Of a stretch of 64,000 nt of DNA, positions 1-17,674 are shown in pieces (the first letter of the stretch is position 1; each line of letters starts with the position of its first letter). A model generated the notes under the pieces. The model did not search any database, was not told the origin of the DNA, and saw only the letters and a program-made list of their open reading frames with translations. The DNA is from a virus. The position numbers and the translations under genes were made by a program. The DNA lies in IMG/VR virus record IMGVR_UViG_3300033141_002294, positions 4,482 to 68,481 of that record; one strand, 5' to 3'.

Positions 1-990
1 CGCCCCGACCGCAGACAGGTCGCTGGTGATGCCCAGCGAGAGGACCGACCCGCTACTGGAGGCGGTGAGCCCCCGACAGGACAGGTCAGATGTAAGCGTA
101 GCACCGACGGCCGACAGGTCGGAAGTCACGCCAATGCTCAAGAACGAACCCGAACTGCTGACCGTAACACCCCGACTCACTTTGATGTCGCTCGTGACCG
201 ATAGCGACAGGGCAGAACCACTGCTGCTGAGGGTCAAGCCACGGGCGGAGATGTCCGAGGTTGCCGTCAGTCCGAGACAACTGACGTCAGACGTGACACC
301 GACGCTGAGAAACGATCCCGAACTGCTGGCGGTGAATCCCTGGCAGGTGATATCGCTCGAACTGGCGAGACTGTCCACCGTAGCATCGCTGGACAGGGTC
401 AGACTGCGCCCGGTAATGCCGCTTGTCACGCCCACCGACAGGAAACTCCCGCTACTCGACGCCGTAAATCCCTGGCAGGTAATGTCGCTGGAGGACGCCA
501 GGGAATCTACGGTTGCATCGCTGGACAGCGTCAGGGAACGTCCACTGATGCCGCTTGTTACGCCGACACTCAAAAATGAGCCACTACTCGATGCAGTGAA
601 TCCCTGGCAGGTGATGTCGCTACTCGACGCCACGCTGCCGACTGTGGCCTCACTCGAAAGAGTCAGGTTAATGCCGCTGATGCCACTACTGGAGGCGATG
701 GTCGCGCCGACTACCGCACTACTGGCGGTCAGGGTTTCGGCGGAGAAATCGCTCGTCAGTGTGAGCCCTCTGCCGGTAAACTCGCCGTCGGAGTCAATAG
801 ATGCCACGAGGGTTGTCGAACTGTCGTAGATGTTGACGCTCCGGGCACCGGCGGCGTCCCTCAGTTTGAGGTTGATGTCTCCGGTACTGCTGTCGGGGCG
901 GATGGTCACACCGCCGTCTTTACTGATTACCGTCTCGCCGAGGTCCGCACCCGGTGCATGGACCTGCCGACGGAACTTTTCAATACCCAT
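1..990 (-). CDS. Ser/Thr-rich repeat virion protein, probable head fibre (runs off the left window edge)
   Basis: Not in the ORF track. ATG at 990 with AGAGGTG RBS; frame open to position 1 (MGIEKFRRQVHAPG...). Has 11-aa repeat units such as SSDITCQGFTA/SSSGSFLSVGV and directly follows the major capsid gene. Confidence 0.75.
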   Translation of the reverse strand, partial: MGIEKFRRQVHAPGADLGETVISKDGGVTIRPDSSTGDINLKLRDAAGARSVNIYDSSTTLVASIDSDGEFTGRGLTLTSDFSAETLTASSAVVGATIASSSGISGINLTLSSEATVGSVASSSDITCQGFTASSSGSFLSVGVTSGISGRSLTLSSDATVDSLASSSDITCQGFTASSSGSFLSVGVTSGITGRSLTLSSDATVDSLASSSDITCQGFTASSSGSFLSVGVTSDVSCLGLTATSDISARGLTLSSSGSALSLSVTSDIKVSRGVTVSSSGSFLSIGVTSDLSAVGATLTSDLSCRGLTASSSGSVLSLGITSDLSAVGA

Positions 991-1098
991 ACGGGTCACC
1001 TCTGCGGGGTTGCTCGCTCCCCCAAGCGGCGGTTCCCCACAGGGTAGGGGCCTGCCTCCCGACAGGCCCCTACGTGGACATTGTTATTCGCTCTTGGC

Positions 1099-2100
1099 TC
1101 ACGCCACGATGCTGGTAAAGTACGCTCCGAGGTCCGCAGCCACGACCTTCATATCGTAGGCCATTCCGCCTTCAATACGGTCGGCCTCCAGCTTTTCCAT
1201 GCGGAATTTCTTCATCTTCACGCCCATGTTGTTCAGGCCGGTGTAGCCCGACCAAGTGAACGTATAGCCCGCACTCGGAGTGCGCAGGCCGGGGGCAGGG
1301 GCCGCATAGCACAGCAACGCGCTCTTGCCGTAGATGAACGACTTGGTATGGCTCGTCCGGCCTTCGGGTGTGGTGACCTTGATGCAACGAGGCACGAAGA
1401 TGCGGTCGACCTCGAACAGTCCGGCCAGAATCTCCGTGGTAACCACGCCGCGTTGGGTGTACTTGATGCGGTCGAGAATGTCTGGATGATGCTTCAGGCG
1501 GTCGAACACCTTCGGGCCGAGGACCAGTGTATTCGGCCATTTGCCCGTCTTCTCCATGATGCTGGTCGCCTGTTCCGACACATCCTCAATCGGCGTGGAG
1601 TCGACGTCATTCCACTGTACCACCTCGTCGGTGCTCGGGGCGGATGATACGCCGGTGATGTCGGTCGACCCAGTAGCGCCGGTCCAGACGCCGGTGGTCA
1701 TGTTGTCGGTGGCCCAGTCGATTTCGCGGGTCAGCAACAGGTTGCCCATAACGAACTCGGTGCCCTCGCGGTCCAATTGAATTACCGAGTCGGCATTGGC
1801 CCGCTCCTGGTCGGCGACGTCCTTGTGAAACGCGTACACGTCGCAGCGGTAGCTGTCAGTATTGAGCTTATACCCGCCACCTGCGGATTCTGTAGCCGGA
1901 GCGCGCTTTTGCGCTTCGGCCCGGAACCAGTAGTCCATGTCGTAGGTGTAGTAGATGTCACTCTGTTTCTGGACCGGGACTCGCGGGAATACCCGGTCCG
2001 CGATATACTCACTGGCGTCCTGCATGAATGCGATGCTGAGGTTGGTCAGCACTGCATTTTGATGCACGTCAGTTGCCGTTGGGTTCGGCAATGCATTCAC
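1099..2100 (-). CDS. major capsid protein
   Basis: 333 aa; LTNLSIAF..IADRVFPRVPVQKQSD N-terminus typical of HK97-fold MCPs; follows scaffold and decoration genes. Confidence 0.9.
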   Translation of the reverse strand: MNALPNPTATDVHQNAVLTNLSIAFMQDASEYIADRVFPRVPVQKQSDIYYTYDMDYWFRAEAQKRAPATESAGGGYKLNTDSYRCDVYAFHKDVADQERANADSVIQLDREGTEFVMGNLLLTREIDWATDNMTTGVWTGATGSTDITGVSSAPSTDEVVQWNDVDSTPIEDVSEQATSIMEKTGKWPNTLVLGPKVFDRLKHHPDILDRIKYTQRGVVTTEILAGLFEVDRIFVPRCIKVTTPEGRTSHTKSFIYGKSALLCYAAPAPGLRTPSAGYTFTWSGYTGLNNMGVKMKKFRMEKLEADRIEGGMAYDMKVVAADLGAYFTSIVA

Positions 2101-2171
2101 TCTCCCTTGAGTGCTGCTCGCCTACCCCTGGCGGCATTCCCCATATAGAGCCTGCAGAGTCGGTATCGGTA

Positions 2172-2552
2172 CTAGGTCGTGGCCGGTGTCTGGAGCAGCA
2201 TCGTCAGAATGTCGCCTGCCGAGCCGCTGGAGCCGGTGATGATCTGGCCCAACACGTAAGACCCGGCGGTCGAAGCCTGTCCACGCCCGACACTAGAGCA
2301 GGCCACTGATTCAGCCAGGCCGATACTCCCGTCGGTGTTGATCTTCGTGATGCTGCCCGGCAGGGCCACAGCGGCGTCATACCCGCTAGACGGGTTGTTC
2401 TGGAGTACACCAAGCACGCGGCCTCCAATGCCGGTTGACAGGTACACATAGCCGTCACTCGTCGCCGCAGAGACGAACCGATACTGGCCGGTGCTGCTAA
2501 GGTCCTCACCGGCGGTGAAGGGCCAAGTGCGGAGCAGTCCCTCTTGAGCCAT
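2172..2552 (-). CDS. capsid decoration/cement protein (DUF2190-like)
   Basis: 126 aa, FTAGEDL..QYRFV..LGVLQNNP pattern; immediately upstream of MCP. Confidence 0.75.
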   Translation of the reverse strand: MAQEGLLRTWPFTAGEDLSSTGQYRFVSAATSDGYVYLSTGIGGRVLGVLQNNPSSGYDAAVALPGSITKINTDGSIGLAESVACSSVGRGQASTAGSYVLGQIITGSSGSAGDILTMLLQTPATT

Positions 2553-3433
2553 TAACCAGCAGCCTCCCTTTCATATGCTTTGGCAACCTCCGGGTCGGTG
2601 GTCGCCATGCGAATTGCGTCACTGCGCTTCAAGTTCGAATCGGCCTTCATGAACTCATCGGCCTTCTTCTTGATGAGGTCCGAGACCGACGGAACCTCGT
2701 CGCTCGACTTGCCGATTTCCTGGAACAGCCCTGCGTCTACGGCCCGCGCCTGCTCGCCTGCCCACATCTCCCGCAGACTCTTGGCGAGTTCCGGATCGGC
2801 GTTTTCGGCCTTCTCCAGCATGGTAGCAAGCTCGTTCGTCGACTTGCCGAGCCGGTCGAACTTGACTACCTCCTGGCGCAAGTTGGCCCGCCGACGCTCC
2901 AACCTCTCGGCGTCCAGGTCCTCGCGGAGCTTCTTAATTAGCTCATCGCGCTTGGCAAGCTCGACTGTCAACTGGTCCTTGTCGTCCTTCTCTTCCTTGG
3001 CCTTCTCGACGTCGTCCTTGGGCTTGTCCTCGGCTGCCTTCTTCGCCTCAGCGATCTGCGCTTCAACGAGCTTGCGTTGCTCCTCGGGCAGGGTCTTCAG
3101 CACATCCTCGTAGCTCTTGACCTCCGTAGTCTCCTTGCCCTTCGGGTCCTCCGGCATGGGGTCTCCACGTCCTTTCTCGGTTGTCTGTTGCTGGTCGTCG
3201 GCCCCCACTTCCTTCATCAGATCGTCCAGACCCTTGCGTGTGGCCGTAATCCAACCGACCAGCCTGTCCTTCAAACTCACCGGTCCGCCTCCCTTCTCCA
3301 CAGGTTCCGGCTCCTCTCCTGCCTGCCGCCGCATCAGCATCACCTGTGCGCCGGGGCTGGAGCCTGCATCCACGCCGCTCACGAACTCCAAGCGCAAGTT
3401 TTTTAGCCTGTGCGGTTTCTTCGGCTCAGGCAT
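2552..3433 (-). CDS. scaffold-like prohead protein
   Basis: N-terminal RLKNLRLEFVSGVDAG motif followed by a highly charged coiled coil; lies between protease and cement genes. Confidence 0.7.
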   Translation of the reverse strand: MPEPKKPHRLKNLRLEFVSGVDAGSSPGAQVMLMRRQAGEEPEPVEKGGGPVSLKDRLVGWITATRKGLDDLMKEVGADDQQQTTEKGRGDPMPEDPKGKETTEVKSYEDVLKTLPEEQRKLVEAQIAEAKKAAEDKPKDDVEKAKEEKDDKDQLTVELAKRDELIKKLREDLDAERLERRRANLRQEVVKFDRLGKSTNELATMLEKAENADPELAKSLREMWAGEQARAVDAGLFQEIGKSSDEVPSVSDLIKKKADEFMKADSNLKRSDAIRMATTDPEVAKAYEREAAG

Positions 3434-4115
3434 CGTCTATCACCTCAATCTCCGCCGTCCCTCCAATCGAGAACATTGCGTACTCGCCGTCTTTGAACTT
3501 CTGCAACACCTCGTCACTGTGGGGTCTGAATCCCACCCACATACCGCGCCAGCCGTACGGTTTCGGCTGGCCGGGGAACATGGCCTCCAGCTTGCGGTCG
3601 TCAATGAAGGCACACTCAACAAGGTCCCCGGCTCGTTCCCAGTCGTGTTGCTGGTCCATGCCTCGGGCCTCGGCAACGAAATCATAGCAGGCACGTTCCA
3701 AGTCGATGTCCTCAATGATCGCGTTGTGACTGTCGAAGACCGGCTGGCGCCCGTCCTTGGTCACCTGCGCGTTGGTGTAGCCCCAGCCGAAGACGACGCC
3801 GAGTTCCTCATCGACATCCTCAACCTTGTAAATCTTCGCGTCGGCCTGCGTCACCGTCTCCTGCCATCTGCGCTTGACGGCGTCGGGATGTTCTGAGACC
3901 CATTTACGGGCCTGCTGCGCCGTAAACTTGTCCTTTGGAAAGATGAGCGACTGCAGTGTCATCGTGGTCTGGCCTTCCAGCCTGCCTACGACGCCTTTCA
4001 CGCCGCTGTCGCCCATACTGATGGTGCGGAACGACCCTTCCTGGAACTTCCCGGGATCTCTCACTCTGTAGCGATAGCTGCTGCTGGTTTCGTCCCAGCC
4101 GCCATCTTGGGGCAT
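3426..4115 (-). CDS. XkdF-like putative prohead protease
   Basis: ELGVVFGW, DSHNAII, LERACYDF, QQH and FKDGEYAMFSIGG motifs; head-module position. Confidence 0.75.
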   Translation of the reverse strand: MPQDGGWDETSSSYRYRVRDPGKFQEGSFRTISMGDSGVKGVVGRLEGQTTMTLQSLIFPKDKFTAQQARKWVSEHPDAVKRRWQETVTQADAKIYKVEDVDEELGVVFGWGYTNAQVTKDGRQPVFDSHNAIIEDIDLERACYDFVAEARGMDQQHDWERAGDLVECAFIDDRKLEAMFPGQPKPYGWRGMWVGFRPHSDEVLQKFKDGEYAMFSIGGTAEIEVIDDA

Positions 4116-4121
4116 TGGGGA

Positions 4122-5108
4122 TCACCTCCTGCGTTTCCTAAGTGCCTGCTTCACCTCACGGACAATCCGCTCCGTCCCACGCCCGTCGACCAGTTTCCGC
4201 AGGCCGCGGTGCATCCGCAGGCGGGTCCTGTAGGTCAATTGCTTTAGGGCACCGCGGAGCTTGTCCGGGTAGAACTCTCGCACCATACCGAGGTCGATAG
4301 CCAGTTCACGGCGCGCCAAATATTCGCTATTGGCCGCCTGATCATCGTTCGTGCGGACGATGATGGCTGGAACGCCCATCCGGGCAACCTCAAACAACAT
4401 CTGGCCGCCGCCAGTGATGGCAATATCGGCCAGCTTAAGGTGCGGGGCTAGCGTCGACACGCCCTGCAACACTGAGTAGTTACAGCCCAATAGCCGCAGT
4501 CTGTGTGGTTCACTATTGGCCCATTGCTTTATACATTTATCAATTGCCTCTCTTGACGACGAAGGCCCCACAACTACGGTAAGCCACAACCATGCTTGAT
4601 ACCCCGGCAAAGCTTCGAGAACACGCTTTGTAATCTCGGTGGTGTCCCCGCCGCCCATTACTACCAATAGGTGGAGGGGGCCTCTCTTTGGGATTCTGCG
4701 CTTTTCAGTTATGTATTCTGGCCTGTACTCCTCGCCGAGTATGGCGTATTTGCACCCTTCAAGCTTTCGGGTAATGCCATCCCATGTGCCAGACCATGGC
4801 CCTATGCGCCGTGCGTCGAACCTGGAATCGACAACAATGTCTGGAGGAACCGGGGCGGCGTAGTCTTCGGTCAGCACGATTACCAGATTGCCCGACTCTC
4901 TGTGCTGTTGGACCAGTCGTTCGGCCTCTTCGGTGCGCTTCCATACGGTGGCGCATCCTGCGATTCTTGCGTTGAAGCACGGTGCGTCTAGAATGGCTAT
5001 CCTTTCATTGCCCAACCCCGCGTTCTCCAGGGCTCCCTTCAGCCGCTCAACCCGCTTCACATGCCCCATGCCGATATTCGGGCCTGATTCGGTGTAGGTG
5101 GTGATCAT
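4122..5108 (-). CDS. PseG/SpsG-like GT-B fold UDP-sugar hydrolase
   Basis: Likely start MITTYTESGPNIGMGHVKR (GxGHxxR); LVVMGGGD, ADIAITGGGQMLFE, DDQ and VDGRGTERI motifs. Confidence 0.8.
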   Translation of the reverse strand: MITTYTESGPNIGMGHVKRVERLKGALENAGLGNERIAILDAPCFNARIAGCATVWKRTEEAERLVQQHRESGNLVIVLTEDYAAPVPPDIVVDSRFDARRIGPWSGTWDGITRKLEGCKYAILGEEYRPEYITEKRRIPKRGPLHLLVVMGGGDTTEITKRVLEALPGYQAWLWLTVVVGPSSSREAIDKCIKQWANSEPHRLRLLGCNYSVLQGVSTLAPHLKLADIAITGGGQMLFEVARMGVPAIIVRTNDDQAANSEYLARRELAIDLGMVREFYPDKLRGALKQLTYRTRLRMHRGLRKLVDGRGTERIVREVKQALRKRRR

Positions 5109-5356
5109 AGCAGGTCCTCGTAAACTATGGTGCAGAACATGAAAAGCCCGACGACAAAAGCGAAAAGCGCACCAGCCCCAGTCAGTATGTATTGGCTGTA
5201 GGGATAGGTATTTGCTATTACGTCGGCAGCCATCCACATCGCGAGTGCCCCGCCGCTTGCCAGTGCAGCCGCGCCGATAAATACCAGCAAGGCACGACCG
5301 ACAACCCTCACTCCTTCTCCTAATCCCCACCAAGCCCGGCTCAAGATGTCCTTCAT
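5105..5356 (-). CDS. small membrane protein
   Basis: 83 aa with two hydrophobic stretches; GAGGGG RBS. Confidence 0.55.
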   Translation of the reverse strand: MKDILSRAWWGLGEGVRVVGRALLVFIGAAALASGGALAMWMAADVIANTYPYSQYILTGAGALFAFVVGLFMFCTIVYEDLL

Positions 5357-5377
5357 CTTCGTACCCCCTCGATGATG

Positions 5378-5563
5378 TTACCCCGATTGACTATCGGTTG
5401 CTTTGAGCACTGCGCATGCAGCTAGGTATCCTCCCACGCATCCCAACGCCCAGCCCGGGTAGCCAAGTCCCAACCCTATACTCAACAACGCCCCGCCGGA
5501 ACCCATAAGCCCCACGAATAGCAGTACATCAAACAACGTCTCAGCCCACTCGGGAACTTCCAC
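5378..5563 (-). CDS. small membrane protein
   Basis: 61 aa, hydrophobic; GAGGGGG RBS. Confidence 0.5.
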   Translation of the reverse strand: MEVPEWAETLFDVLLFVGLMGSGGALLSIGLGLGYPGWALGCVGGYLAACAVLKATDSQSG

Positions 5564-5596
5564 GAAACTACCCCCTCACGAACAGAGCAGTGCAGC

Positions 5597-6646
5597 CTAA
5601 TCCCTTGGATTGATGCTAACGTCATCCAACATGACCGGCTCACCTTTCTGGCCCGGGAATATGACCTCGACTCTGTCGTGGTAGCGTAGGGCCTCGGCAG
5701 GGAGATGGAATCCGCTTGTAGCCGACGGAGTCGGGGCTGGCCGTACCGTTGTAATCAGGTCCTGCCATCGACCCACTTCGCGTTTTCTGACGTCTCTCGC
5801 CCAGTAACATGCCCTACGAATTTGGGGCTGCGCCTTGGTCACTGCCACCACTGCCTCTCGTGGCGGCCCGAAAGGTGCGGTTCCATCCTCAACGTCACGA
5901 ATCGCTTGCACCAGTGCCGCAAACTCATGCGGCTCCAGAGCATGGCCGTGGTCCGGGCCGTCCTGTTCGCGGCTCATGGTGATATGCTTTTCCACCATCC
6001 GCCCACCAAACGCCACCGAAGCCGCCGGCAAGCCTATGCTCGTCGTATGGTCGGAAATGCCAACATCGATACGCAGACCGGTGCGCCGAAACGCCTCCTG
6101 CTGGCGTTGCAGCATCGGCAGATGGTACATCACGGGCGTTGCCGGGTACACCGGCACACAGTGCAGAATGGTAATTTGCGGGTTGCTGCTGACAGACGAA
6201 ATCCAGTAAGCGGCTCGGGTTACGTCACGCCAGCTTGACGCTCCCTGTGACAACACAACGGGCCGTGATGGCCGCATTTCGGCCATGCGCTCAATCAACG
6301 CCCTGTACGTCAGGTCTCCCGAGGCGACCTTCCAGAACGGCACCCACAGCTCGTCCAGCAGTTCAACCGCCTCAAAGTCAAACGGCGTTGAGTTGAACGC
6401 TATGCCGCATTCTGCCGCGTAGTCGGCCAGTTCCTCGTGCCATTTCCTGGGCAACTGACACCGACGAATCAGGTCGTAGGCCCAATGCGTGGGGTGACAC
6501 AGCCCATCCTCCGTGTACGTCTGGAACTTGATACAGTCTACTCCGGCCTCGGCCGCCGCCTTGATGAGTTTCTTTGCCTCGTCCTTGTCGCCGTTGAAAT
6601 TCGCCCCTGCGTCGGCCACTGTCACGGTACGGGTCCAGTCGATCAT
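5597..6646 (-). CDS. NeuB/PseI/SpsE-family nonulosonic acid synthase
   Basis: ADAGANFNGD, IKFQTY, STPFD, KVASGD, LHCV..YP, GISDHT, EKHIT and GPDH motifs, with a degenerate C-terminal SAF-like tail. Confidence 0.9.
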   Translation of the reverse strand: MIDWTRTVTVADAGANFNGDKDEAKKLIKAAAEAGVDCIKFQTYTEDGLCHPTHWAYDLIRRCQLPRKWHEELADYAAECGIAFNSTPFDFEAVELLDELWVPFWKVASGDLTYRALIERMAEMRPSRPVVLSQGASSWRDVTRAAYWISSVSSNPQITILHCVPVYPATPVMYHLPMLQRQQEAFRRTGLRIDVGISDHTTSIGLPAASVAFGGRMVEKHITMSREQDGPDHGHALEPHEFAALVQAIRDVEDGTAPFGPPREAVVAVTKAQPQIRRACYWARDVRKREVGRWQDLITTVRPAPTPSATSGFHLPAEALRYHDRVEVIFPGQKGEPVMLDDVSINPRD

Positions 6647-6650
6647 GTTC

Positions 6651-7055
6651 TTACCCCTTTGCACTTGTTATGCCTATGGCCACCAAAATCACGGGCAGTA
6701 AGAGCGCCAGAATCGCCGACCCTATAGGCATCAACTTGCGCTCCAGTCGCCATAGGGCCGGTATAGAATCCGGCCCATGTTTCCACTCTCTGATCGCGCA
6801 TTTTTCCACCCACGCGCAACACCAGCCGCCGACAATTGGGATGCACGTCCCGACAATAAGGATGGTCAGAAACAAGACAAAGGCGATCAGCTGCCATCCC
6901 ATGCATAGCACATCCGGATGGGTTGCTACGCACAGCAGGCTGGCCACTCCTATAACGATCAGCACCAACCCGACGGCTTGGCGGCAGACAATCCACCATG
7001 TTTTGTCCATCAAGTCCCTCATCGCCCAATGCCATTCAGGTGTAGATGCGTACAT
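6651..7055 (-). CDS. membrane protein
   Basis: 134 aa with about three hydrophobic segments. Confidence 0.5.
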   Translation of the reverse strand: MYASTPEWHWAMRDLMDKTWWIVCRQAVGLVLIVIGVASLLCVATHPDVLCMGWQLIAFVLFLTILIVGTCIPIVGGWCCAWVEKCAIREWKHGPDSIPALWRLERKLMPIGSAILALLLPVILVAIGITSAKG

Positions 7056-7258
7056 GTGTTACCCCCTTGTCGCATGTCGGCCCCAGGCCAGGAATCGGCT
7101 CAATCACAGGAGCCACACCGCCCATACTGGCACATGCCATGCCGCAACCGCATACCACTTCAATACCAACACTGCGCCCCATGCGATGCCAATTATAAGC
7201 AGCGCTTTTCCGGCTTCCATGTTTTTACCCCCTTTGGTGTGGTTACCCCGCATCATGA

Positions 7259-7528
7259 TTACAGCCTCTCTCCTCGGCTATATCGCGTCCGCCGCTCCCG
7301 CATCGACAAAGGTTCTGTGGAATGATAGAGATACTCCAGATTTAGGGAGCGCTCTGGGTATCGTGCTCGGACAGCCGCACCAATCGGCAGGTCAAGGACG
7401 TCAAAGTGCCTGCCAAACCACATGCGCCAAATGCACAAATACAAAGTGCCGTCGGCGTCAATGTACCAAGACCAGTAGGCAAGAGGGAGCAACTGTTTGA
7501 TGTACCAGAGCAGGCTAGTCAGTTTCAT
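7259..7528 (-). CDS. hypothetical protein
   Basis: 89 aa with GGGAGGGG RBS. Confidence 0.5.
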   Translation of the reverse strand: MKLTSLLWYIKQLLPLAYWSWYIDADGTLYLCIWRMWFGRHFDVLDLPIGAAVRARYPERSLNLEYLYHSTEPLSMRERRTRYSRGERL

Positions 7529-7549
7529 GGCTACCCCTCCCCAAGTGTG

Positions 7550-8374
7550 TTACCCCAGTCTAGTGTCCTCCGTCTTAAGCCGAAACAGCATAGAACCGGT
7601 GCGTTGCTTCTGTCTGTCTTCCGCCGTCTCCATCTCCAGCCTCAGATATATTCGCCCGACGCCGGGCACCGTGAAGTATGCCCCTTGGTGTGGTAGAAAT
7701 GTTCTGGCCCGCAGTGTGTTCAGCAGATCGCGGGCTGTGTATTTCACGCCCAGGTCGATTTCATCAATTGCATCGAGATCAGACAGTCTGCGATGCGTTC
7801 CGGCTTCGGGGTCCTGCGGCGTCCGGGGAGCCGTGCCGTCCTTGATACTGGGCCACGTGCCTTGGAAGAGTTTTGCCCCTGCATCCAGCAGTTTGCTGTG
7901 CAGTGTCTCGCCTGTATCCCAGGGCTGCACGTCGACGCGCTCCTGCGCAATGATGTCCCCAGTATCAATGCCCTCATCCATCCAGTGCAACGTGACCCCC
8001 GCCGGTGTGCCGTCGATGATGGGCCAGACGTTGGGGCAGGCACCTCGATTGTAGGGGAGATAGCCGGTGTGGAGGTTGACGATGGGCAAACGGTCCAACA
8101 AATCCTTTGGCACTTTGTACCCAAAGCCAGCACTGATACCGATGTCGGGCTTGAGACCTAGGGCCTGTTTCCACCACGGCATGTCGCCCGGCTGTTCGCC
8201 AAACGGATCGCCACAGAAGACAGAGGCGTCCCAGTGGCAGCATCGAATATCCTTCTTGAGCCGCGCCGTCTCATCCGGGTGGACCACAAGGCCGACGACG
8301 TTCTCTCGCAGGTGCTGGAGGCTATAGGCTACGTCGGCTCCGAGTTGGCTATTCGCCAGCAGGAGGATGCGCAC
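7550..8374 (-). CDS. sugar N-formyltransferase (Fmt-like fold)
   Basis: VNLHTGYLPYNRGACPNVW, GVTLHWMDEGIDTGDII and C-terminal LRARTF.P..GAYF motifs; nucleotide-sugar gene context. Confidence 0.85.
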   Translation of the reverse strand: MRILLLANSQLGADVAYSLQHLRENVVGLVVHPDETARLKKDIRCCHWDASVFCGDPFGEQPGDMPWWKQALGLKPDIGISAGFGYKVPKDLLDRLPIVNLHTGYLPYNRGACPNVWPIIDGTPAGVTLHWMDEGIDTGDIIAQERVDVQPWDTGETLHSKLLDAGAKLFQGTWPSIKDGTAPRTPQDPEAGTHRRLSDLDAIDEIDLGVKYTARDLLNTLRARTFLPHQGAYFTVPGVGRIYLRLEMETAEDRQKQRTGSMLFRLKTEDTRLG

Positions 8375-8682
8375 GGATTCACCCCCGACATTTCACGTAG
8401 TTCCTGCGCACTCCGCCCCACGGTGTTTCTACAGGCCGCCGTGCACGTGCTGACTCCAGTTATCTCAAGCACGTCCTGCCACCGGCAATTGCAGATGGCG
8501 GTTTTCGGAATGTCGCCTACACGGTTGGGGCATTTCGGGATATCCGGCACCGAGCACCGATGCCCAGGCCGCACACATCGGCAGGTGACTGTCTCGGGGT
8601 CCCACATTCTACAAGTGGCCGTTTCCAGGGTGCCGTCGGGCCGCTTGTGGGCCGTCTTGGGACAGTTCTTCAGTTGCGACAT
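8329..8682 (-). CDS. Cys-rich hypothetical protein
   Basis: Many Cys residues; AGGAG RBS; overlaps both neighbours. Confidence 0.4.
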   Translation of the reverse strand: MSQLKNCPKTAHKRPDGTLETATCRMWDPETVTCRCVRPGHRCSVPDIPKCPNRVGDIPKTAICNCRWQDVLEITGVSTCTAACRNTVGRSAQELREMSGVNPCASSCWRIANSEPT

Positions 8683-9413
8683 TTTGCTACTCCTGTCTGA
8701 TTTGTGAGGCTCTCTTTTGCCCACCTGAGTACTGCCCCCGTATCCGGCTTAGGCCCGAGCTCGTCGAACACCTGCGTGAGCCAGTCGTAGTCGTTTTGGT
8801 CGTCGATGGATAGTTTGCAGGCGCGGCCGCTTCCGATGTAGGGTAGAATAGCTTCTGCTGAGACTCGCAGACTACGCACCTCGGACCACGGCACTGCCCG
8901 GTACCATCCCCACCGGGCCGGCAACCGGGATGTCACGTGCTCACGCTCGTCAGGGTACAGTCGGCCTGGGTTGATGCGCAGGAACTCCCACGCGTCCACT
9001 AGCTCGGCCCCGGCACCGTCTGTCATACAGCGCTTGGTCGCGTCGATGTAGGCAAACAGGCTGTCCTCCTCGGCTACGGTGACCATGCCTGCCAAAAGCT
9101 GCGGATCAACCAGCGGACAGTCTCCGGTAACCCTCAGGAACACGTCCGGTTGCTCCTGCTCCACCACAGCCCGAAACCGCCCGAAGACGTCATTCTCGTC
9201 GCCCTGCCACTTGTGCACTTTGCAACCCAGGGACTCAGCTAGCTCAATGATGGGCTTGTCCTCAGCAGGCGTGGTCACAACCACGTCAAGGACCGCCTGC
9301 TGTGTCCTCCTGATGACGTGCTCCAAAACAGGACGCCCGGCTAGGGGTAAGAGCACCTTGCCGGGCAGTCGAGAGGAGTCGAGGCGGGCCTGGATTATAG
9401 CGATGGTTTTCAT
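8670..9413 (-). CDS. SpsF-like cytidylyltransferase (CMP-nonulosonic acid synthetase)
   Basis: AIIQARLDSSRLPGKVL, GDENDVFGRF, RVTGDCPLVDP, REHVT and LSIDDQND motifs. Confidence 0.9.
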   Translation of the reverse strand: MKTIAIIQARLDSSRLPGKVLLPLAGRPVLEHVIRRTQQAVLDVVVTTPAEDKPIIELAESLGCKVHKWQGDENDVFGRFRAVVEQEQPDVFLRVTGDCPLVDPQLLAGMVTVAEEDSLFAYIDATKRCMTDGAGAELVDAWEFLRINPGRLYPDEREHVTSRLPARWGWYRAVPWSEVRSLRVSAEAILPYIGSGRACKLSIDDQNDYDWLTQVFDELGPKPDTGAVLRWAKESLTNQTGVAKCRN

Positions 9414-9715
9414 GGGCTATTGTCCACTCTAGCGTCATTGCCTTCGGGTAGCCTGATGTCGTTTGGGCGCGGACGGAGAGGGCGGTCTGTATCAAGCGGA
9501 GACGGCCAGTTGGTCCCATGGCGCAGAGTTGGTAGTACGTATATGTGGTATCTGTCTACGCAGTTCCAACTGCAGCAGTGGACAATCAGGTCGTTCTCAA
9601 ACTCTCCTTCCGGTGTGACGCAGACACGCACCAGCCCTATCCAGGACCCTGGTTCGGGTACGTCCAGACGGCGCGTTTTGCCGCAGATGTCGCAACGTAG
9701 TTGTGTTGTCAGCAT
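9410..9715 (-). CDS. Zn-binding hypothetical protein
   Basis: CDICG ... CCSWNC pattern. Confidence 0.5.
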   Translation of the reverse strand: MLTTQLRCDICGKTRRLDVPEPGSWIGLVRVCVTPEGEFENDLIVHCCSWNCVDRYHIYVLPTLRHGTNWPSPLDTDRPLRPRPNDIRLPEGNDARVDNSP

Positions 9716-9895
9716 GTCTCTACCCCCATTGTGGTTACTGACACCGTAGCGCTTCCTCGTCTTCCTCAGACACAAACTGCTGGCAGTAGCTCTTGAACGC
9801 AATCATGAACGCCTGCCAAGTCTCCTCGGCACTGAGTTGGTAATACTGCGTCCCTTCAGGCCGTTGGTGCAGGGTTGCTATGGTTTGTACCCCCT

Positions 9896-10765
9896 TTACT
9901 CCGGCACTACCAAACCCACTGAGCACCTGCACATCGGATGAGCCGTCGGCCCCGGCAATTGTATCCCTCTGACGTTATCCTGAAACATCCCACCTACGGG
10001 CTGTATCTGCCCGTCAAGCGCACGACAGATAGGGCAGACCCGGTCGTCCCTGGCGGCTATCCACTGCTGCATCGCATAGTTGGGAACCACGCCCTGCTCC
10101 TGTGCCTGCCTCCATGACTCCTGCGTTCCTTTCGCCTGGGCGTTGATGGTCTCTGTCCGTGCTATGCGCATCGCCCGTCGCCGGAGCATCTTGCGGCTGT
10201 AGGTGTCCGTCATGCGGTCGACCAGTTTGGCGGACCGATTGCCCTCAAGGGTAAGGCGTGTCCAGTAGTTGTGGACCGCTTTTGCCTCGCGCTCCGTCAG
10301 GCCGATGATTTCCCTGATGCGCTGGCCCATGCGGTAGGGAGGGTCACCACGGCGGAAGGCATCCTCGATGATACGCCTGATGCCCGCACGGGTGTTGTCG
10401 TACACCTCGGCGACCAGTTCCGCCCCGTGCTGCCGTATCCACTCCTCGGCGTAGGGGTTGCGCAGACCGAAGTTCAGGGTTATTCGCAGCTGCTCGGCCT
10501 CTTTGTAGGCAGAACGGAAGAATATCTCCCGCAAGATGCGGCCCCAACCGCGTTCTGCGGCCTCCCTGGACCGTTCCCACGCCATGGATTCAAGCACGAA
10601 GTGGGGGGCCCCGACCTGCACGGCCATAACGGCGGCCTCTTCGGAGACGGACTCCTTGAGCTTCGCCGTGCTGTCGTTGAACATCTGAACCCACCTGCCC
10701 AAATCTTTGTTGCTTGGGCGGGTGGGTTGCTTGCGACTCGGGGCCTTGATTACCAGTCGCTTCAT
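9896..10765 (-). CDS. head morphogenesis protein (Mu gpF / SPP1 gp7 family)
   Basis: RAMRIARTET, WIAARDDRVCPICRALDG and HPMCRC motifs; follows portal. Confidence 0.9.
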   Translation of the reverse strand: MKRLVIKAPSRKQPTRPSNKDLGRWVQMFNDSTAKLKESVSEEAAVMAVQVGAPHFVLESMAWERSREAAERGWGRILREIFFRSAYKEAEQLRITLNFGLRNPYAEEWIRQHGAELVAEVYDNTRAGIRRIIEDAFRRGDPPYRMGQRIREIIGLTEREAKAVHNYWTRLTLEGNRSAKLVDRMTDTYSRKMLRRRAMRIARTETINAQAKGTQESWRQAQEQGVVPNYAMQQWIAARDDRVCPICRALDGQIQPVGGMFQDNVRGIQLPGPTAHPMCRCSVGLVVPE

Positions 10766-12060
10766 AGCTCGTCCGCCTGCTCCTTGATTTGAGGCAGGCC
10801 CATGCGCTGGAGGACTGCATTCGTGATTTCCTCGTTCGGGAACAGCACCGCCCCGGCACCGCTCAGGGCAGTAATCATCTTGGCGATCTCCTCAAGCGGC
10901 ATCTGCTCCAGGTCACCGTGTGTAATCTCCGGCATGGTCTCGGGTTGCATGCCGTTATAGGCCAGGAGCTTGGGCACGGCGTGGCGGTTTATCTGTGCCG
11001 CGATGTGGTCGAGGTAGGCGTTTGTGGCGGTGGCGAACAGGTTGGTCTTTGAGGATGCCAGAGCAAACGAGCCGACCTTCTCCATGCCCAAGAATAGGAA
11101 CTCGGCCAGGGCGGTCATGGCGGTCCGCTGCTCATACCGAGTGATGATGGCGTTGGTGTCGAACTGTCTGGTGCCTCCGGTGGAGAGGAGGCGGAGCTTG
11201 AACCCGGTTTTGATGACGTTGCCGGCGGAATCGGAGATTTCCTCACATGGGACGACCAGACCCTCACGCTCATCGCGCTTGATTTCGGCCATCGCTGTCT
11301 TGAACGCCTCATACTGGGCTTTCTCATCGGTGTTGGCCGAAGGCAGTGTAATATGGGGCGGCACCTCCAGCACGGGCAACCCAGCCAGATCACGCTCTAC
11401 GCCGATAGCCTCAATCTCCTGGATCCGCTTCGTGAAATACCACGGCCTGAATGCATTGCGCAGAATAGACCGACCCTCAGGATTGCCCAGCATCTCCTTG
11501 GTGCGGAAAAGCAACAGCTTTTCTATTGGAATGAGCACTTCCGGCCCACCCGTCGGGTCCTGCTGGTACATGCCCTTCAGTTCGTTGTTGTCGTCAAACT
11601 CCCAGCCGGTGACCGTCTCGGGCGACCGTATCTCTAGCTTGCGCCAGCCGATACGCCCGTCAGTGTACCGGGAGTTTCGGGTCGGGTCCTTGGACTCACC
11701 GGCCCGCTGCTTGTAGCACAGTTCAAACGGCGCGAACCCAAACGGCAGCATCGACCCGAATATCTCTCCGATGAACGACGGCCAGGTATGGGACATATCG
11801 TCCATACACGAGGCGACGAACTCAGCCGCCTCCACACTGCCCTGGTCCGCATCCTCACCTGCGGAAACCTCCCACTCGACGCCTCGGCAGAGCATCTCCG
11901 TAACGAGGATGATAGCGCCAATGATGGGATCGTTGTCCCGCATCTCCTTGTAAACCCGGATGCCATTCGTACCCTTCAGTGTGTTGTGCATCTCCTGGTC
12001 TATGATTCTGCCATAGCGGGGCAGGCCGGTTCTGCCATATACTCTATACTGCTGGGCCAT
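10762..12060 (-). CDS. portal protein (Mu gp29/DUF935-like)
   Basis: GNPEGRSILR, EAIGVERDLAGLP and GSFALA motifs; follows terminase. Confidence 0.9.
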   Translation of the reverse strand: MAQQYRVYGRTGLPRYGRIIDQEMHNTLKGTNGIRVYKEMRDNDPIIGAIILVTEMLCRGVEWEVSAGEDADQGSVEAAEFVASCMDDMSHTWPSFIGEIFGSMLPFGFAPFELCYKQRAGESKDPTRNSRYTDGRIGWRKLEIRSPETVTGWEFDDNNELKGMYQQDPTGGPEVLIPIEKLLLFRTKEMLGNPEGRSILRNAFRPWYFTKRIQEIEAIGVERDLAGLPVLEVPPHITLPSANTDEKAQYEAFKTAMAEIKRDEREGLVVPCEEISDSAGNVIKTGFKLRLLSTGGTRQFDTNAIITRYEQRTAMTALAEFLFLGMEKVGSFALASSKTNLFATATNAYLDHIAAQINRHAVPKLLAYNGMQPETMPEITHGDLEQMPLEEIAKMITALSGAGAVLFPNEEITNAVLQRMGLPQIKEQADEL

Positions 12061-12064
12061 CTAA

Positions 12065-13510
12065 TCACACCTTCCAGGGAGAGCGGCGCTTGCCCCATTC
12101 ATCCGGTCGCCATTCAGTCTTGCGGGCTTTACTCTGCTCCAGCCTGAGCAGTGCCTGACTCATGGCATCGACCTGGTCGTCCGTTGCGGCGTTGGGAAAA
12201 GCGGTGGCCTCACTCAAAAAATCATTAATCCAGGCAGCCCGTCTGGGCAGATACACATTGCCCGACTGTACATAGGGAGCTACTGCAGCAGCCCGCGCCT
12301 CTTTTCCGCCCTGTGGCTGAACCGGGACTAGTCCGGCTATCTGTCGCCGCAGAGTAGCGATGACCGCCGGACCGTTTGCCTGGTCCTCAACGAGTTTGAG
12401 GCGGGCCTTCGGCCAGCGGTTGCTCATCGCAACTACCGACAGGATGGTGGCGGGAAAATTCATGCGCTGGCGCACCTGATCCAGTAGGTAGAAGTCGGCG
12501 TCCCTGCGGCCCCAGGCCTGACCTACCACGTAGGAGCCCTCCTGCGTGTTCTTGAATGCCATGTCCCAGGATTGAACGACCTCATCCAGGTCAACCGGGG
12601 CATCGTCGTACCATTGCCACCAGTCGCGGTGGAAGATATTGCCCTCGGGTGGGGCGGGACGTTGCTGGTACAGTGCAGACCATACATAGGGTCCAACCGC
12701 TTGCTTGATGCGCTCCAGTTGGTCTGTATCGAATCGCTCAGGCCACAAAGGCTCTCCGGGCTCGCGACCCAATTGGTCGTTATCCTCCGCCAGAGCAGGG
12801 AGGGTGATTCGCGTCCACCTGTCGCCGCCCGCCTTCTCTTCCTCGATGAGCCGTCCTGCGAGGTCGTCCTCATGCCAGCGGGTCATGATGAGGATAATGG
12901 CCCCGCCGGGCTCCAGGCGCGTGTATAGTGTGGACTGGTACCAGTCCCATTGTTTGTCCCGGATAACCTGTGATTGGGCCTCTTCTTGGTTCTTCAGCGG
13001 GTCGTCTATAATGGCGATGTCTGCTCCGCGGCCCGTGATGGGACCGCCTACGCCGACGGCTACCATGCCGCCGTCATGTCCCTTTAGGTCCCACCTGTCT
13101 GCCGCTGAGGAGTCATCCGCTACATCAACACCGAAGAGGAGGGGACCAGTTTGCTCCAGCAGGTCGCGGGCCTTGCGTCCAAAGCCTCGGGCGAGATCGG
13201 AGCCATAGGACGCCAGGATAATCCGGTTGTCGGGAAAGTTCCCCAACGCCCAGGCGGGGAAGTATTTACTTGTAAACTCGCTCTTGCCGTGCCGGGGAGG
13301 CATCTGGATCATCAATCGCAGGATGCGTTTGGCGGCTACGTCGGCGAGGGCGTCACTCAGGCGTAGCAGGTGTCTCGCAGGTATCCATCTGCGGTTGCTC
13401 GCCAGCCATGCGTACCCCGCCGGTAGCCCCAGCAAGGCGCTCGAATAGCTGATTGGCAGTAGCTCGGGCGTCTGGGTTGTTGATGATTTCCTGCCGGATG
13501 TCATACTCAT
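12065..13510 (-). CDS. terL: terminase large subunit
   Basis: MPPRHGKS (Walker A), ITGRGAD, IIDDP, LYQQRP, SWDMA and DDQVDA motifs. The true start may lie downstream of 13510. Confidence 0.95.
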   Translation of the reverse strand: MSMTSGRKSSTTQTPELLPISYSSALLGLPAGYAWLASNRRWIPARHLLRLSDALADVAAKRILRLMIQMPPRHGKSEFTSKYFPAWALGNFPDNRIILASYGSDLARGFGRKARDLLEQTGPLLFGVDVADDSSAADRWDLKGHDGGMVAVGVGGPITGRGADIAIIDDPLKNQEEAQSQVIRDKQWDWYQSTLYTRLEPGGAIILIMTRWHEDDLAGRLIEEEKAGGDRWTRITLPALAEDNDQLGREPGEPLWPERFDTDQLERIKQAVGPYVWSALYQQRPAPPEGNIFHRDWWQWYDDAPVDLDEVVQSWDMAFKNTQEGSYVVGQAWGRRDADFYLLDQVRQRMNFPATILSVVAMSNRWPKARLKLVEDQANGPAVIATLRRQIAGLVPVQPQGGKEARAAAVAPYVQSGNVYLPRRAAWINDFLSEATAFPNAATDDQVDAMSQALLRLEQSKARKTEWRPDEWGKRRSPWKV

Positions 13511-14035: not shown

Positions 14036-14121
14036 TGGGCCGGGCGGGGTTTGCACCCGCATCTCCGGGCTCCTCGCCCGGTGCTCTCAGAGTCGCCTCC
14101 ACTAAGTTGAGCTACCGGCCC
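14036..14121 (-). tRNA. atypical tRNA-like gene (anticodon position AGG, expanded D-loop)
   Basis: Acceptor GGGCCGG/CCGGCCC, D stem GCTC/GAGC, anticodon stem CCGGG/CCCGG with loop CGAGGAG, T arm GCGGG-TGCAAAC-CCCGC. Confidence 0.65.
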
Positions 14122-14430: not shown

Positions 14431-14504
14431 TGGCTGGGGCGGCAGGACTCGAACCTACGCTAGCGGGTTCAAAACCCGCTGTCTTACCACTTGACTACGC
14501 CCCA
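14431..14504 (-). tRNA. tRNA-Gln(UUG)
   Basis: TGGGGCG acceptor stem, anticodon loop TTTTGAA, GGTTCGAGTCC T arm, encoded CCA. Confidence 0.92.
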
Positions 14505-15813: not shown

Positions 15814-16902
15814 CTACAGGATTTTCGACCATTTCTCCACCATCTCGGGGCTCAACCCCCGGCTGACTACCGGCACGTTGTTCTCCCAGTCATTTAACAG
15901 TATCTGCCTGCACTGGTGCCGATGCACCGCTTCATTCTCCGCCTGCCCTGCAAAGCGCTTCCTAAATCGCTCCACCTTGTCCGTCGGCGTAGTGTCTAGC
16001 AGATAGTCGCGGTATTCCCTCCAGGTGCCGAAATGGGGGGGGAGCTCGTCGGCCGAGTACACCTGCCTGTCGTCTGCGTATAGCGCCGCACAGTGGATGC
16101 CCTGCAGCCTCCGTAGCAACCGCTCGTAGGTCTCCGGCTCGAACTCCTGGAGGTTGGCGAGGCAGTAGAATGCCTTCTCATGAATGAGGTTCGACACCCG
16201 CATATCACTGATGTTGTGGCCTATTTTGGCGAACATCTGGTCGTAGACGGGGTTGTACTCTAGGTTGTGGTCGGCGATATACTTCCAGATGTCGGGGAAG
16301 CACCAGTCGTAAATAGGGTAGAACCTCCAAGCCTGGGGGTTCTTAGTCTTCGTGCTCCACCATATGCCCTTGTAGCCCGGGTTCCTGGTAATTGCGCGAA
16401 ACCGGTTGAGGCTCTCTTTCGACCTGATACCCACTAGCATAGCGGTAGGCTCCTCAAACTGCGTCTCCAGCCAGTCGAAGAATTTGTAGAATCGCCTCGG
16501 GTAGTCCACATCGAGGGAGTGGATCGCGATGTCGCTCTTCTCCCGCATCCATTCCTCTCCCTCTCCCCAGGCGTAGAGGAAATACTCGCGGTGTGACGTC
16601 GCGTTAGTCATGTAGATCGGCACCTGATACCACATGGGAATGACCCGGGGATGGCGCATCATGCCGTCTATCAGGCGCACGGTTGCAGCATATTCGGCCT
16701 CCTGGTCGAGGAAAAACACTTTCACCTTTCTGTCACGCCGCTCTGCCTCCTCAATGGCCAGGTGAAACAAGACCGTGCTGTCTTTACCCGACGACACACT
16801 GACGACGATGTTGTCAAACTCGTCGAAGACCCTGGCAACCCGCTGCCTCGCGGCCTCCAGGACGTCTATGTCTTTGTACTCTACCAGTGCTGCCTTAGCC
16901 AT
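15814..16902 (-). CDS. IbrA/YbdN-like PAPS-reductase (PP-loop) family protein
   Basis: DVLEAARQRV, VSVSSGKDS PP-loop, GIRSKESLNR, YPIYDW..DIW and MRVS motifs. Confidence 0.9.
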   Translation of the reverse strand: MAKAALVEYKDIDVLEAARQRVARVFDEFDNIVVSVSSGKDSTVLFHLAIEEAERRDRKVKVFFLDQEAEYAATVRLIDGMMRHPRVIPMWYQVPIYMTNATSHREYFLYAWGEGEEWMREKSDIAIHSLDVDYPRRFYKFFDWLETQFEEPTAMLVGIRSKESLNRFRAITRNPGYKGIWWSTKTKNPQAWRFYPIYDWCFPDIWKYIADHNLEYNPVYDQMFAKIGHNISDMRVSNLIHEKAFYCLANLQEFEPETYERLLRRLQGIHCAALYADDRQVYSADELPPHFGTWREYRDYLLDTTPTDKVERFRKRFAGQAENEAVHRHQCRQILLNDWENNVPVVSRGLSPEMVEKWSKIL

Positions 16903-17674
16903 AGCGCAACCCCTCCGCAATGGCATTCGTCAGGTCCATCAGGCCCACCAGTTCGCTCACCAGATGCTCGTCGACCTTCAGGTCCGTGCGTACTACCTCA
17001 TGCTGCTCCCGGTCGAACAGTCTTGCTGGCGTGGGGACCCTGCGCTCAGGGCAGACATCTCTGGCATACCTCGCCAGCTTGGTGATTACCCCCCTGATGG
17101 TTGTCTCCGTCTCAAACAGGTATGTCTTCAGGTCCTCATACTCCAGCTTCTGCGCGGCCGTCGTCGGCACAACCCGGATCGTGGGTCTGCCGAAGTACTC
17201 TGCGTAGTCGCAAGTCACTGTGCCCTTCGCCCATCTCAGTATCTCCTCAGCCGAGAACGGGTTGAAGTCCGAAACATCCTCTTTCCACTGTTTCCAGCGG
17301 GTCTCTGCTATGTAGCTGTAGCTGTAGTCCAGGTACTGTGCGCCGACGAACCCGAAGTGGAACCACGTCCGCCAGGGTTCGCTGACGAACAGCGTCCGGT
17401 CTATCGACATCTTGCGGATGTCGCGCATACGATTGTAGACTATCTCCCATACGTGCTTCGTGCGGCTGGAGGGGGTTATGAGCCTGTTCAGCCCGACCAT
17501 CACGAGGTTGTCGAACCCCTTGATGCATCCCTGCGGGTCGTCCTCAAACCTCTCCCACTCGATTACCCGACTGCCCGGTATGTTTGGCGTAGGGTATGCC
17601 TTGTGCACCACGCAGACCGTTTTGCCGTCGAGTGGGGGGGAGAGGAACCCAATATCCTTACTCAGATAGATCAT
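16895..17674 (-). CDS. hypothetical protein, possibly a degenerate SNF2 N-terminal domain
   Basis: Coupled to both neighbours; EPWRTWFHFGFV..LDYSYSY and YEDLK..ITKL segments loosely recall SNF2_N, but Walker motifs are absent. Confidence 0.5.
   Translation of the reverse strand: MIYLSKDIGFLSPPLDGKTVCVVHKAYPTPNIPGSRVIEWERFEDDPQGCIKGFDNLVMVGLNRLITPSSRTKHVWEIVYNRMRDIRKMSIDRTLFVSEPWRTWFHFGFVGAQYLDYSYSYIAETRWKQWKEDVSDFNPFSAEEILRWAKGTVTCDYAEYFGRPTIRVVPTTAAQKLEYEDLKTYLFETETTIRGVITKLARYARDVCPERRVPTPARLFDREQHEVVRTDLKVDEHLVSELVGLMDLTNAIAEGLRYG

Follow-up and report, generated by a model that had tools for sequence, protein, structure and literature searches.

Within a 64,000-nucleotide stretch of the IMG/VR virus record IMGVR_UViG_3300033141_002294 (hereafter the window, which spans bases 4482-68481 of the 68,481-base record; the record has 114-base direct terminal repeats), positions 4122-9413 hold a cassette of sugar-biosynthesis genes embedded among the head-assembly genes of a phage. 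The combination of the window with L002, a stretch of the same record including the 4,481 bases that the window omits, indicated from sequence that the phage encodes the whole six-step route from uridine diphosphate (UDP)-N-acetylglucosamine (UDP-GlcNAc) to a cytidine monophosphate (CMP)-activated sugar of the pseudaminic acid (Pse) type, together with two candidate transferases and a Ser/Thr-rich candidate acceptor. The head operon comprises the following genes, listed in window coordinates unless L002 is given.

12065-13510, minus strand: large terminase
10762-12060, minus strand: Mu-type portal
9896-10765, minus strand: Mu-F-like head morphogenesis protein
9410-9802, minus strand: p130, conserved small ORF carrying CxxC and CC...C motifs, flanked by the Mu-F and cytidylyltransferase genes
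8670-9413, minus strand: SpsF-type cytidylyltransferase, 247 aa, proposed CMP-nonulosonate synthetase (PseF step)
8329-8724, minus strand: p131, Cys-rich small open reading frame (ORF) between the cytidylyltransferase and the formyltransferase
7550-8374, minus strand: sugar N-formyltransferase, 274 aa
7259-7528, minus strand: p89, conserved small ORF with the ribosome-binding site GGGGAGGGG upstream
7104-7277, minus strand: p57, hydrophobic, one transmembrane-like segment (hydropathy, ribosome-binding site)
6651-7055, minus strand: p134, hydrophobic, three to four transmembrane-like segments (hydropathy, ribosome-binding site)
5597-6664, minus strand: NeuB-family nonulosonate synthase, 355 aa (proposed PseI step)
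5378-5563, minus strand: p61, small hydrophobic ORF
5105-5356, minus strand: p83, hydrophobic, two transmembrane-like segments; its stop overlaps the PseG-like start
4122-5108, minus strand: PseG-like GT-B protein and proposed UDP-sugar hydrolase, starting with the Met at 5108 (328 aa)
3426-4115, minus strand: XkdF-type prohead protease
2552-3433, minus strand: 293-aa protein
2172-2552, minus strand: scaffold
1099-2100, minus strand: major capsid protein
L002:3756-5480, minus strand: Ser/Thr-rich repeat protein, 574 aa, directly downstream of the capsid gene; its N-terminal 333 codons are window positions 1..999
L002:2749-3756, minus strand: PseB, outside the window
L002:1598-2776, minus strand: PseC, outside the window
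L002:1036-1605, minus strand: T189, transferase paralog, 189 aa, outside the window
L002:149-1039, minus strand: T296, transferase paralog, 296 aa, outside the window

The sugar genes form two blocks with the head core (1099-4115) between them, all within the head operon. A first-pass annotation, made from the window, had recognized four sugar genes in the interval bounded by the Mu-F head gene and the prohead protease (cytidylyltransferase, N-formyltransferase, NeuB-family synthase, and PseG-like), and each was confirmed on the minus strand. The flanking genes and the late-operon orientation that it described were likewise recovered, with the terminase, portal, scaffold, and capsid genes lying on the same strand. 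Seven small ORFs that it had not listed are interleaved with the enzymes (p130, p131, p89, p57, p134, p61, and p83), three of which (p89, p57, and p134) fill the interval of ~0.9 kb between the formyltransferase and the synthase as minus-strand genes. Neither p130, p131, and p89 nor p61 and p83 produced a family match in Pfam, NCBIfam, or PHROGs, and PHROGs likewise offered nothing for T296 or T189, nor for the synthase, the cytidylyltransferase, the PseG-like protein, and the small ORFs.

The lack of a PseB dehydratase, a PseC aminotransferase, and a clear transferase had also been reported, which is correct for the window and does not extend to the record, in which all three are encoded within the omitted 4,481 bases. 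PseB scored 416.6 bits with TIGR03589, above the cut-off of 407.75, and 58 bits with the LegB model. The best model for PseC was TIGR03588 (373.9 bits, below the cut-off of 423.5), along with a Pfam DegT match at E 9e-96. Because the phage encodes PseB and PseC, located 1-3 kb beyond the window start, the pathway would start at UDP-GlcNAc and a host intermediate would be unnecessary, so that the earlier suggestion of a diverted host UDP-4-amino sugar was not borne out. The synthase was recognized by PF03102 (E 4e-61, 207 bits) and scored below the cut-offs of both TIGR03569 NeuB (219.3 bits, cut-off 399.65) and TIGR03586 PseI (201.8 bits, cut-off 340), its solved relatives being SpsE (1vli, E 2e-32) and a pseudaminic acid synthase (8h2c, E 1e-28). 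For the cytidylyltransferase, residues 4-116 matched PF02348 CTP_transf_3 (E 2e-22, 80.5 bits), and the closest solved relative was 6oew, annotated as 'cytidylyltransferase' (E 5e-14, residues 1-161). The PseG-like protein matched TIGR03590 over its C-terminal half alone (E 1e-18, 67.5 bits, cut-off 153.55) and PF04101 at E 1e-4, and phmmer against the PDB returned weak GT-B matches alone and no solved PseG. In the ESM Atlas, this protein resembled clusters named for the PseG reaction, of the altropyranose hydrolase type, with a features score of 0.97 and a TM-score of 0.82 over 293 residues. Bacterial clusters in the same atlas fuse a PseG-like part to Formyl_trans_N, GNAT acetyltransferase domains, or CTP_transf_3, and these natural fusions tie the PseG-like, formyl-, acetyl-, and cytidylyl-transfer steps together.

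The formyltransferase harbors both sugar-formyltransferase domains (PF00551, 63 bits; PF18216 N_formyltrans_C, 46 bits). Its best NCBIfam model was the deoxythymidine diphosphate (dTDP)-4-amino-4,6-dideoxyglucose formyltransferase (117 bits, below the cut-off of 238), and among solved structures it aligned with Rv3404c (96 bits) and PseJ (6ci2, 6ci4; 92.9 bits, E 1.6e-25, residues 71-201). The stretch 'vnlhtg...idtgdiiaq' aligned with 'vnvhpg...ldhgpiiaq' of Rv3404c, and the Asn-x-His and Asp motifs within it are what we take to be the conserved catalytic motifs of the Formyl_trans_N domain. When the six frames of the whole record were scanned for PseH (TIGR03585), GNAT (PF00583), and hexapeptide (PF00132) models, no match was obtained at E <= 1. 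Since no acetyltransferase was found in the record, the formyltransferase would take the place of PseH as the only N-acylating enzyme, which supports the first-pass view of a pseudaminic-type nonulosonate pathway with an N-formyltransferase where PseH normally acts. From the pathway context we propose that it acts on the 4-amino group of UDP-4-amino-4,6-dideoxy-N-acetylaltrosamine (UDP-4-amino-4,6-dideoxy-AltNAc). By the logic of the pathway, formylation of the hexose 4-amine ends up at N7 of the nonulosonate, and the product is likely CMP-5-acetamido-7-formamido-pseudaminic acid (CMP-Pse5Ac7Fo). PMC11040635 describes PseJ as completing the biosynthetic route to Pse5Ac7Fo, and a PseF as accepting Pse5Ac7Fo no less efficiently than Pse5Ac7Ac.

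A search for glycosyltransferases in the gap between the two window ends, which had been put forward as a check, yielded two GT42-like paralogs, T296 and T189, sharing 42% identity over 158 aa. The AlphaFold2 model of T296 (predicted local distance difference test, pLDDT, 82; predicted TM-score, pTM, 0.71) displays an alpha/beta domain at residues 8-185 followed by a long helical hairpin at 194-295. Foldseek searches of the PDB with this model returned Campylobacter Cst-I/Cst-II or a Pasteurella sialyltransferase as each of the nine matches at E <= 0.001 (best E 2.2e-4) and as 14 of the first 14 matches listed. An independent structural scan of 48,161 PDB chains (VIA) ranked Cst-I 2p56 first (Z 11.7, root-mean-square deviation (rmsd) 3.5, 163 residues aligned); the Maf glycosyltransferase 5mu5 reached Z 10.5, but with an rmsd of 17, and many coiled-coil rows of the scan matched the hairpin alone. 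At the sequence level, the alignment of the T296 family to CstII covers the N-terminal glycine-rich strand and the 'YGVDM' segment, and Pfam CST-I was weakly matched by 10 of 44 family members (best E 4e-4). The family is a large one: a word-index search recovered 354 relatives at E <= 0.001, with a Pfam domain in none of the 120 listed, and the family profile matched 5,493 of 1.84 billion cluster representatives at E <= 0.001 (2,269 at E <= 1e-30). We infer, largely from the predicted fold, that T296 and T189 are phage-specific GT42-like enzymes that would transfer the nonulosonate from its CMP donor.

A pattern scan of IMG/VR revealed 463 places encoding the T296 family, of which 80 were fetched, and a comparable scan of ~186,000 species genomes with a 9-sequence query returned seven, all in metagenome-assembled genomes. 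Among 12 long IMG/VR loci (135 proteins annotated with Pfam), the family member followed the capsid gene at a distance of one to three genes in 11, alongside capsids as different as the HK97-type, capsid E, P22-like, and gpT-like families. The exception, L074, carries it after the portal gene, inside a Pse cassette. In this complete 65.5-kb relative, the whole cassette (L074:8452-20546) lies between the portal and Mu-F genes and encodes a transferase, a cytidylyltransferase, a hexapeptide acyltransferase, NeuB, a PIG-L deacetylase, a GNAT protein, PseB, and PseC; neither its insertion point nor its N-acyl chemistry is that of the present cassette. A NeuB and/or CTP_transf_3 cytidylyltransferase gene was found near the family member in seven of the 12 long loci, and hidden Markov models built from these genes detected NeuB in 12, the cytidylyltransferase in 13, and either in 17 of the 80 fetched loci. 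When whole records were searched (66 of the 80; the 14 left out include two near-identical relatives), NeuB was present in 17, and its frequency followed CheckV completeness: 5/5 records at least 90% complete, 12/14 at least 50% complete, and 5/52 below 50%. As a background, three of 50,697 GenBank phage records matched the phage synthase by tblastn.

The immediate neighborhood of the family is also distinctive in composition. The ORF just upstream of the T296-family member had Ser+Thr of at least 20% in 46 of 55 loci (median 24%), compared with 184 of 756 other ORFs (median 14%; Mann-Whitney p 3e-14, from crude ORF calls with two near-identical relatives dropped and relatedness uncorrected). 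The formyltransferase was found in two close relatives only. When the 80 loci were searched by tblastn with the formyltransferase, the PseG-like protein, and all seven small ORFs as queries, nothing emerged except weak cytidylyltransferase matches, and neither p57 nor p134 had a homolog in other T296-family loci. Extra sugar-tailoring genes were observed near NeuB in other phages of the family, encoding a transketolase-like protein, FkbM methyltransferases, and short-chain dehydrogenases (e.g., L040:2356-3438; FkbM-type methyltransferases in L019, L040, and L076). A further locus from an unrelated phage encodes an ADP-ribosyltransferase exoenzyme domain (PF03496, E 3e-12) adjoining the Mu-F gene (L056:1269-1979).

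The 574-aa protein directly downstream of the capsid gene contains 23.5% Ser and 12.0% Thr and is built of repeats with a 132-nt tandem period. Its C-terminal ~110 aa are common to short Ser/Thr-rich proteins encoded after the capsid gene in three other loci of the T296 family (L031, L035, and L072). For this domain, a low-confidence AlphaFold2 model (pLDDT 61) gave matches no stronger than E 2e-3 to T4 gp9, the anchor domains of tailspike TSP4, and the Pa223 capsid spike, together with many uncharacterized viral proteins; the ESM Atlas likened the domain to virus-only proteins. These fold matches are leads only, and suggest that the protein may be a head fiber or spike; we propose it as the most likely glycan acceptor.

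With regard to expression, scanning of 14.6 kb for sigma-70-like sites detected a single one (14414-14386, upstream of the packaging genes) versus 4.4 expected by chance, and no promoter-like site inside the cassette. Terminator-like sites were no commoner than in shuffles, and several cassette genes abut or overlap. The pattern of promoters and overlaps fits co-transcription of the cassette with the head genes.

The closest comparison is offered by L091 (with L090), an IMG/VR record with the same gene order, whose cassette (L091:6921-11792) was compared with window positions 4122-9413. Amino-acid identity was 100% for the scaffold, 99% for the capsid, 97.8% for p89, 97% for the protease, 95% for the portal, and 94% for Mu-F, followed by the synthase (92.6%), p83 (90%), p130 (84%), and p131 (82.5%), and dropped to 68% for the formyltransferase, 66% for the cytidylyltransferase, and 47% for the PseG-like protein. 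The identity of p131 to L091/L090 exceeds that of its neighbors (82.5% vs. 66-68%). Substitutions relative to L091 were in excess at the third codon position in all enzyme genes, p130, and p131 (25/17/58 by codon position for the cytidylyltransferase, 11/8/26 for p131, and 11/5/24 for p130), which marks them as genes under purifying selection. The uneven divergence of the formyltransferase, cytidylyltransferase, and PseG-like genes suggests exchange or fast evolution. As p57, p134, and p61 are absent from the collinear L091, which keeps all enzymes, these three genes appear to be accessory.

Taken together, these features point to a phage that probably O-glycosylates its own head fiber or capsid during assembly, a reading to which we attach moderate confidence. 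PseB, an inverting 4,6-dehydratase, would act on UDP-GlcNAc, followed by the PseC aminotransferase, the N-formyltransferase in place of the acetyltransferase PseH, the PseG-like UDP-sugar hydrolase, the NeuB/PseI-type synthase, and finally the cytidylyltransferase, which would deliver CMP-Pse5Ac7Fo. The two sugar blocks would probably be expressed late in infection, alongside the head proteins, and T296 and T189 would move the sugar onto hydroxyl groups of virion proteins, most likely the 574-aa Ser/Thr-rich protein, in parallel with the O-glycosylation of flagellin by pseudaminic acid. In this scheme, the identities and order of the genes, the T296 fold, and the co-occurrence in other phages are computational results, whereas the exact sugar, the timing of expression, the activity of the transferases, the acceptor, and any benefit to the phage are inferences. 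Virion glycosylation, already named as the likely use in the first-pass annotation, is the best-supported reading, given the position in a late head operon, the GT42-like paralogs, and the Ser/Thr-rich neighbor.

Several observations weigh against this interpretation. Four of the six enzymes (PseC, the PseG-like protein, the synthase, and the cytidylyltransferase) score below NCBIfam equivalog cut-offs, and the SpsF/KdsB-like cytidylyltransferase fails the PseF equivalog in particular (TIGR03584, 27.7 bits, cut-off 205.7). PMC7439481 places the Bacillus subtilis SpsE, SpsF, and SpsG proteins in a UDP-linked legionaminic acid pathway. T296 and T189 produced no match in Pfam, PHROGs, NCBIfam, or PDB sequences; phmmer with T296 against the PDB likewise returned none, and Pfam PF06002 CST-I left both proteins unmatched even at E <= 10. 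The sequence link of the family to GT42 is marginal, with CstII as the top seven of 12 profile matches to PDB sequences at E 0.013-0.14, and the T296 fold is also shared by the MptE-type kinase HPPK MptE (8sd5, Z 10.5). The co-occurrence counts given above are uncorrected for relatedness and come mostly from fragmentary records, and the present record itself was assigned a CheckV completeness of 79% despite its terminal repeats. Finally, the four small membrane-type ORFs of the cassette (p57, p134, p61, and p83) would suit action at the host envelope, as would the temperate nature of the phage, which encodes a tyrosine integrase (45988-47130, plus strand) and CI/Cro-like helix-turn-helix regulators (43599-44168, minus strand; 44427-44834, plus strand, divergent).

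The last two points, along with the role of pseudaminic acid as a bacterial surface sugar (PMC11040635), fit lysogenic conversion, the main rival reading, in which the transferases would act on host acceptors (flagellin, pilin, S-layer, lipopolysaccharide, or capsule), with superinfection blocking or a change of serotype as possible outcomes. We consider this unlikely, as the genes lie in the late structural operon, on the same strand and with no promoter-like site of their own, and three of the membrane ORFs are missing from the collinear relative that keeps all enzymes. The T296 family, moreover, travels with capsid genes and Ser/Thr-rich neighbors in many phages and is encoded at seven places in ~186,000 species genomes versus 463 in IMG/VR, and no flippase, polymerase, or lipid-carrier transferase domain turned up in the domain scans of the record. 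A rather unlikely variant of the same system would employ another chemistry, that is, another stereoisomer (legionaminic-type or other) or N-acyl pattern, with the major capsid or tail proteins as acceptor. The slightly higher score of the synthase on the NeuB than on the PseI model, the SpsF/KdsB-like cytidylyltransferase, and the best-scoring relatives of the formyltransferase, which act on dTDP-4-amino-4,6-dideoxyglucose, are compatible with this, and the presence of two transferase paralogs could allow for two acceptors or two kinds of linkage. The stereochemistry is indeed assigned mainly on the PseB score, because SpsE/F/G-type enzymes serve a legionaminic pathway; PMC7439481 describes legionaminic acid synthesis by sps-type enzymes working on UDP-linked sugars, with a PglF-like dehydratase for which pseB could not substitute, production of legionaminic acid being restored partially at most. 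Against such a variant, the dehydratase passes the PseB equivalog cut-off and performs poorly on LegB, PseC is the best aminotransferase model, and the PseG-like protein resembles altropyranose hydrolase clusters.

It is very improbable that the T296 family consists of MptE-like kinases or structural head proteins, with the sugar destined for DNA or small-molecule modification. The fold does occur in HPPK MptE, thiamine pyrophosphokinase, and SteA, Pfam PF01973 MptE-like was weakly matched by seven of 44 family members (best E 0.024), and the phage has several DNA-modification genes. Conversely, sialyltransferases occupy all top Foldseek ranks and the top profile matches, NeuB is present in all five near-complete records with the family, and we know of no attachment of nonulosonic acids to DNA. 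A broader proposition can be formulated, which we hold tentatively and with somewhat less conviction than virion glycosylation in this phage: many tailed-phage lineages may carry a dedicated 'capsid sialylation' system, combining a phage-specific, unannotated family of GT42-like transferases, a phage-borne nonulosonate pathway, and Ser/Thr-rich head-fiber or decoration proteins as acceptors. This phage would represent its N7-formyl-pseudaminic form, in which the transferase is doubled and the acceptor much enlarged. Within this proposition the glycan would be under diversifying selection, as O-antigens are, because the formyltransferase, cytidylyltransferase, and PseG genes differ by 32-53% between phages with 99%-identical capsids.

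The inferred order of reactions is that of the bacterial CMP-Pse pathway (PseB, C, H, G, I, and F), for which the phage has homologs in five of six steps; the phage version differs by its location in a head operon, its division into two blocks, the lack of PseH, and the SpsF-like cytidylyltransferase. Like the PseJ route (6ci2, 6ci4, 6ci5, 6edk), it assigns the N-acylation step of the Pse pathway to a formyltransferase, although the phage enzyme also has the C-terminal dimerization domain PF18216 and scores slightly higher on Rv3404c-type dTDP-sugar formyltransferases. The Campylobacter jejuni Cst-I/Cst-II enzymes (GT42, PF06002; 2p56, 1ro7) share the fold of the N-terminal 180 residues of T296 and use CMP-nonulosonate donors, as T296 presumably does. 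They differ from it in their ~15% identity, in the added hairpin of T296 (194-295), and in the acceptor, which is lipo-oligosaccharide for Cst and presumably protein for T296. In the flagellin O-glycosylation of the Maf/FlmG type, as would be the case in the phage, a Ser/Thr-rich, surface-exposed, polymer-forming acceptor is modified in the cytoplasm; the phage transferase, however, belongs to a separate family without a Pfam model, with a fold closer to GT42 than to Maf 5mu5. The nearest named relatives of the synthase, cytidylyltransferase, and PseG-like protein are SpsE, SpsF, and SpsG of the B. subtilis sps system for legionaminic acid on the spore crust. There, according to PMC7439481, the nonulosonate coats a proteinaceous shell, as we propose for the phage coat, and the dehydratase is PglF-acting, unlike the PseB-type enzyme of the phage.

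Among phages, mycobacteriophages are described (Freeman et al. 2023, as cited in PMC12619734) as using phage-encoded enzymes from the structural region to glycosylate capsid and tail-tube subunits, and virion glycosylation has so far been documented for a few actinobacteriophages, in which it alters antibody recognition (as cited in PMC12619734). This provides a precedent for phages glycosylating their own virions. Those mycobacteriophages reportedly rely on ordinary glycosyltransferases and host sugar nucleotides, whereas the phage described here brings a whole nonulosonate pathway and another transferase family. Within open-access papers and bioRxiv, no paper was found on phage-encoded nonulosonate pathways used on virions. 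If the proposed reading is correct, a phage-built sialic-acid-like sugar on its own head would constitute a new class of virion modification, and a function could be attributed to a large unannotated protein family, that of T296, with about 5,500 representatives at cluster level. Such a coat could benefit the phage through particle stability, adhesion to mucus or surfaces, or escape from grazing, antibodies, or bacterial receptors, with possible effects on phage-therapy pharmacokinetics. The cassettes would additionally supply compact, self-contained gene sets for CMP-Pse5Ac7Fo synthesis and protein pseudaminylation.

Some details of gene calling and of the remaining record complete the description. 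A plus-strand ORF of 276 aa (6670-7500) was rejected as a shadow of minus-strand genes, the codon-position guanine-plus-cytosine (GC) content fitting the minus frames instead. The first 75 codons of the 403-aa ORF containing the PseG-like gene (4122-5333) were likewise dismissed as noncoding, with codon-position GC of 0.57/0.61/0.47 compared with ~0.6/0.45/0.7 in real genes, and the start was placed at the Met at 5108 on the basis of codon-position GC and a ribosome-binding site. The best PHROG of the prohead protease, phrog_1530, is labeled 'DNA methyltransferase', which is probably misleading, given that Pfam and two other PHROGs identify a head maturation protease. The major capsid protein is 45-51% identical to siphovirus capsids of Arthrobacter, Pseudomonas, Roseobacter, and Rhizobium; no relative of it was found in a scan of the genome collection, and blastn of the cassette against GenBank phages gave no match. 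Late genes lie nearly all on the minus strand, with connector and tail genes after the terminal repeat, at the far end of the window. Two tRNA genes, tRNA-Ala(AGC) and tRNA-Gln(TTG), are located upstream of the packaging genes at 14036-14121 and 14431-14504. A set of nucleic-acid-related genes (15814-16926, 24284-25345, 29756-30538, 30756-31349, and 31488-32654), comprising a PAPS-reductase/DUF3440 protein, an N6/N4 DNA methylase, ThyX, an MT-A70 methylase, and DUF5131, may point to DNA modification. Two adjoining genes (50573-51313 and 51630-52652) encode peptidoglycan-binding lysis enzymes, one with a glucosaminidase domain and the other with an NAGPA phosphodiester-glycosidase domain.

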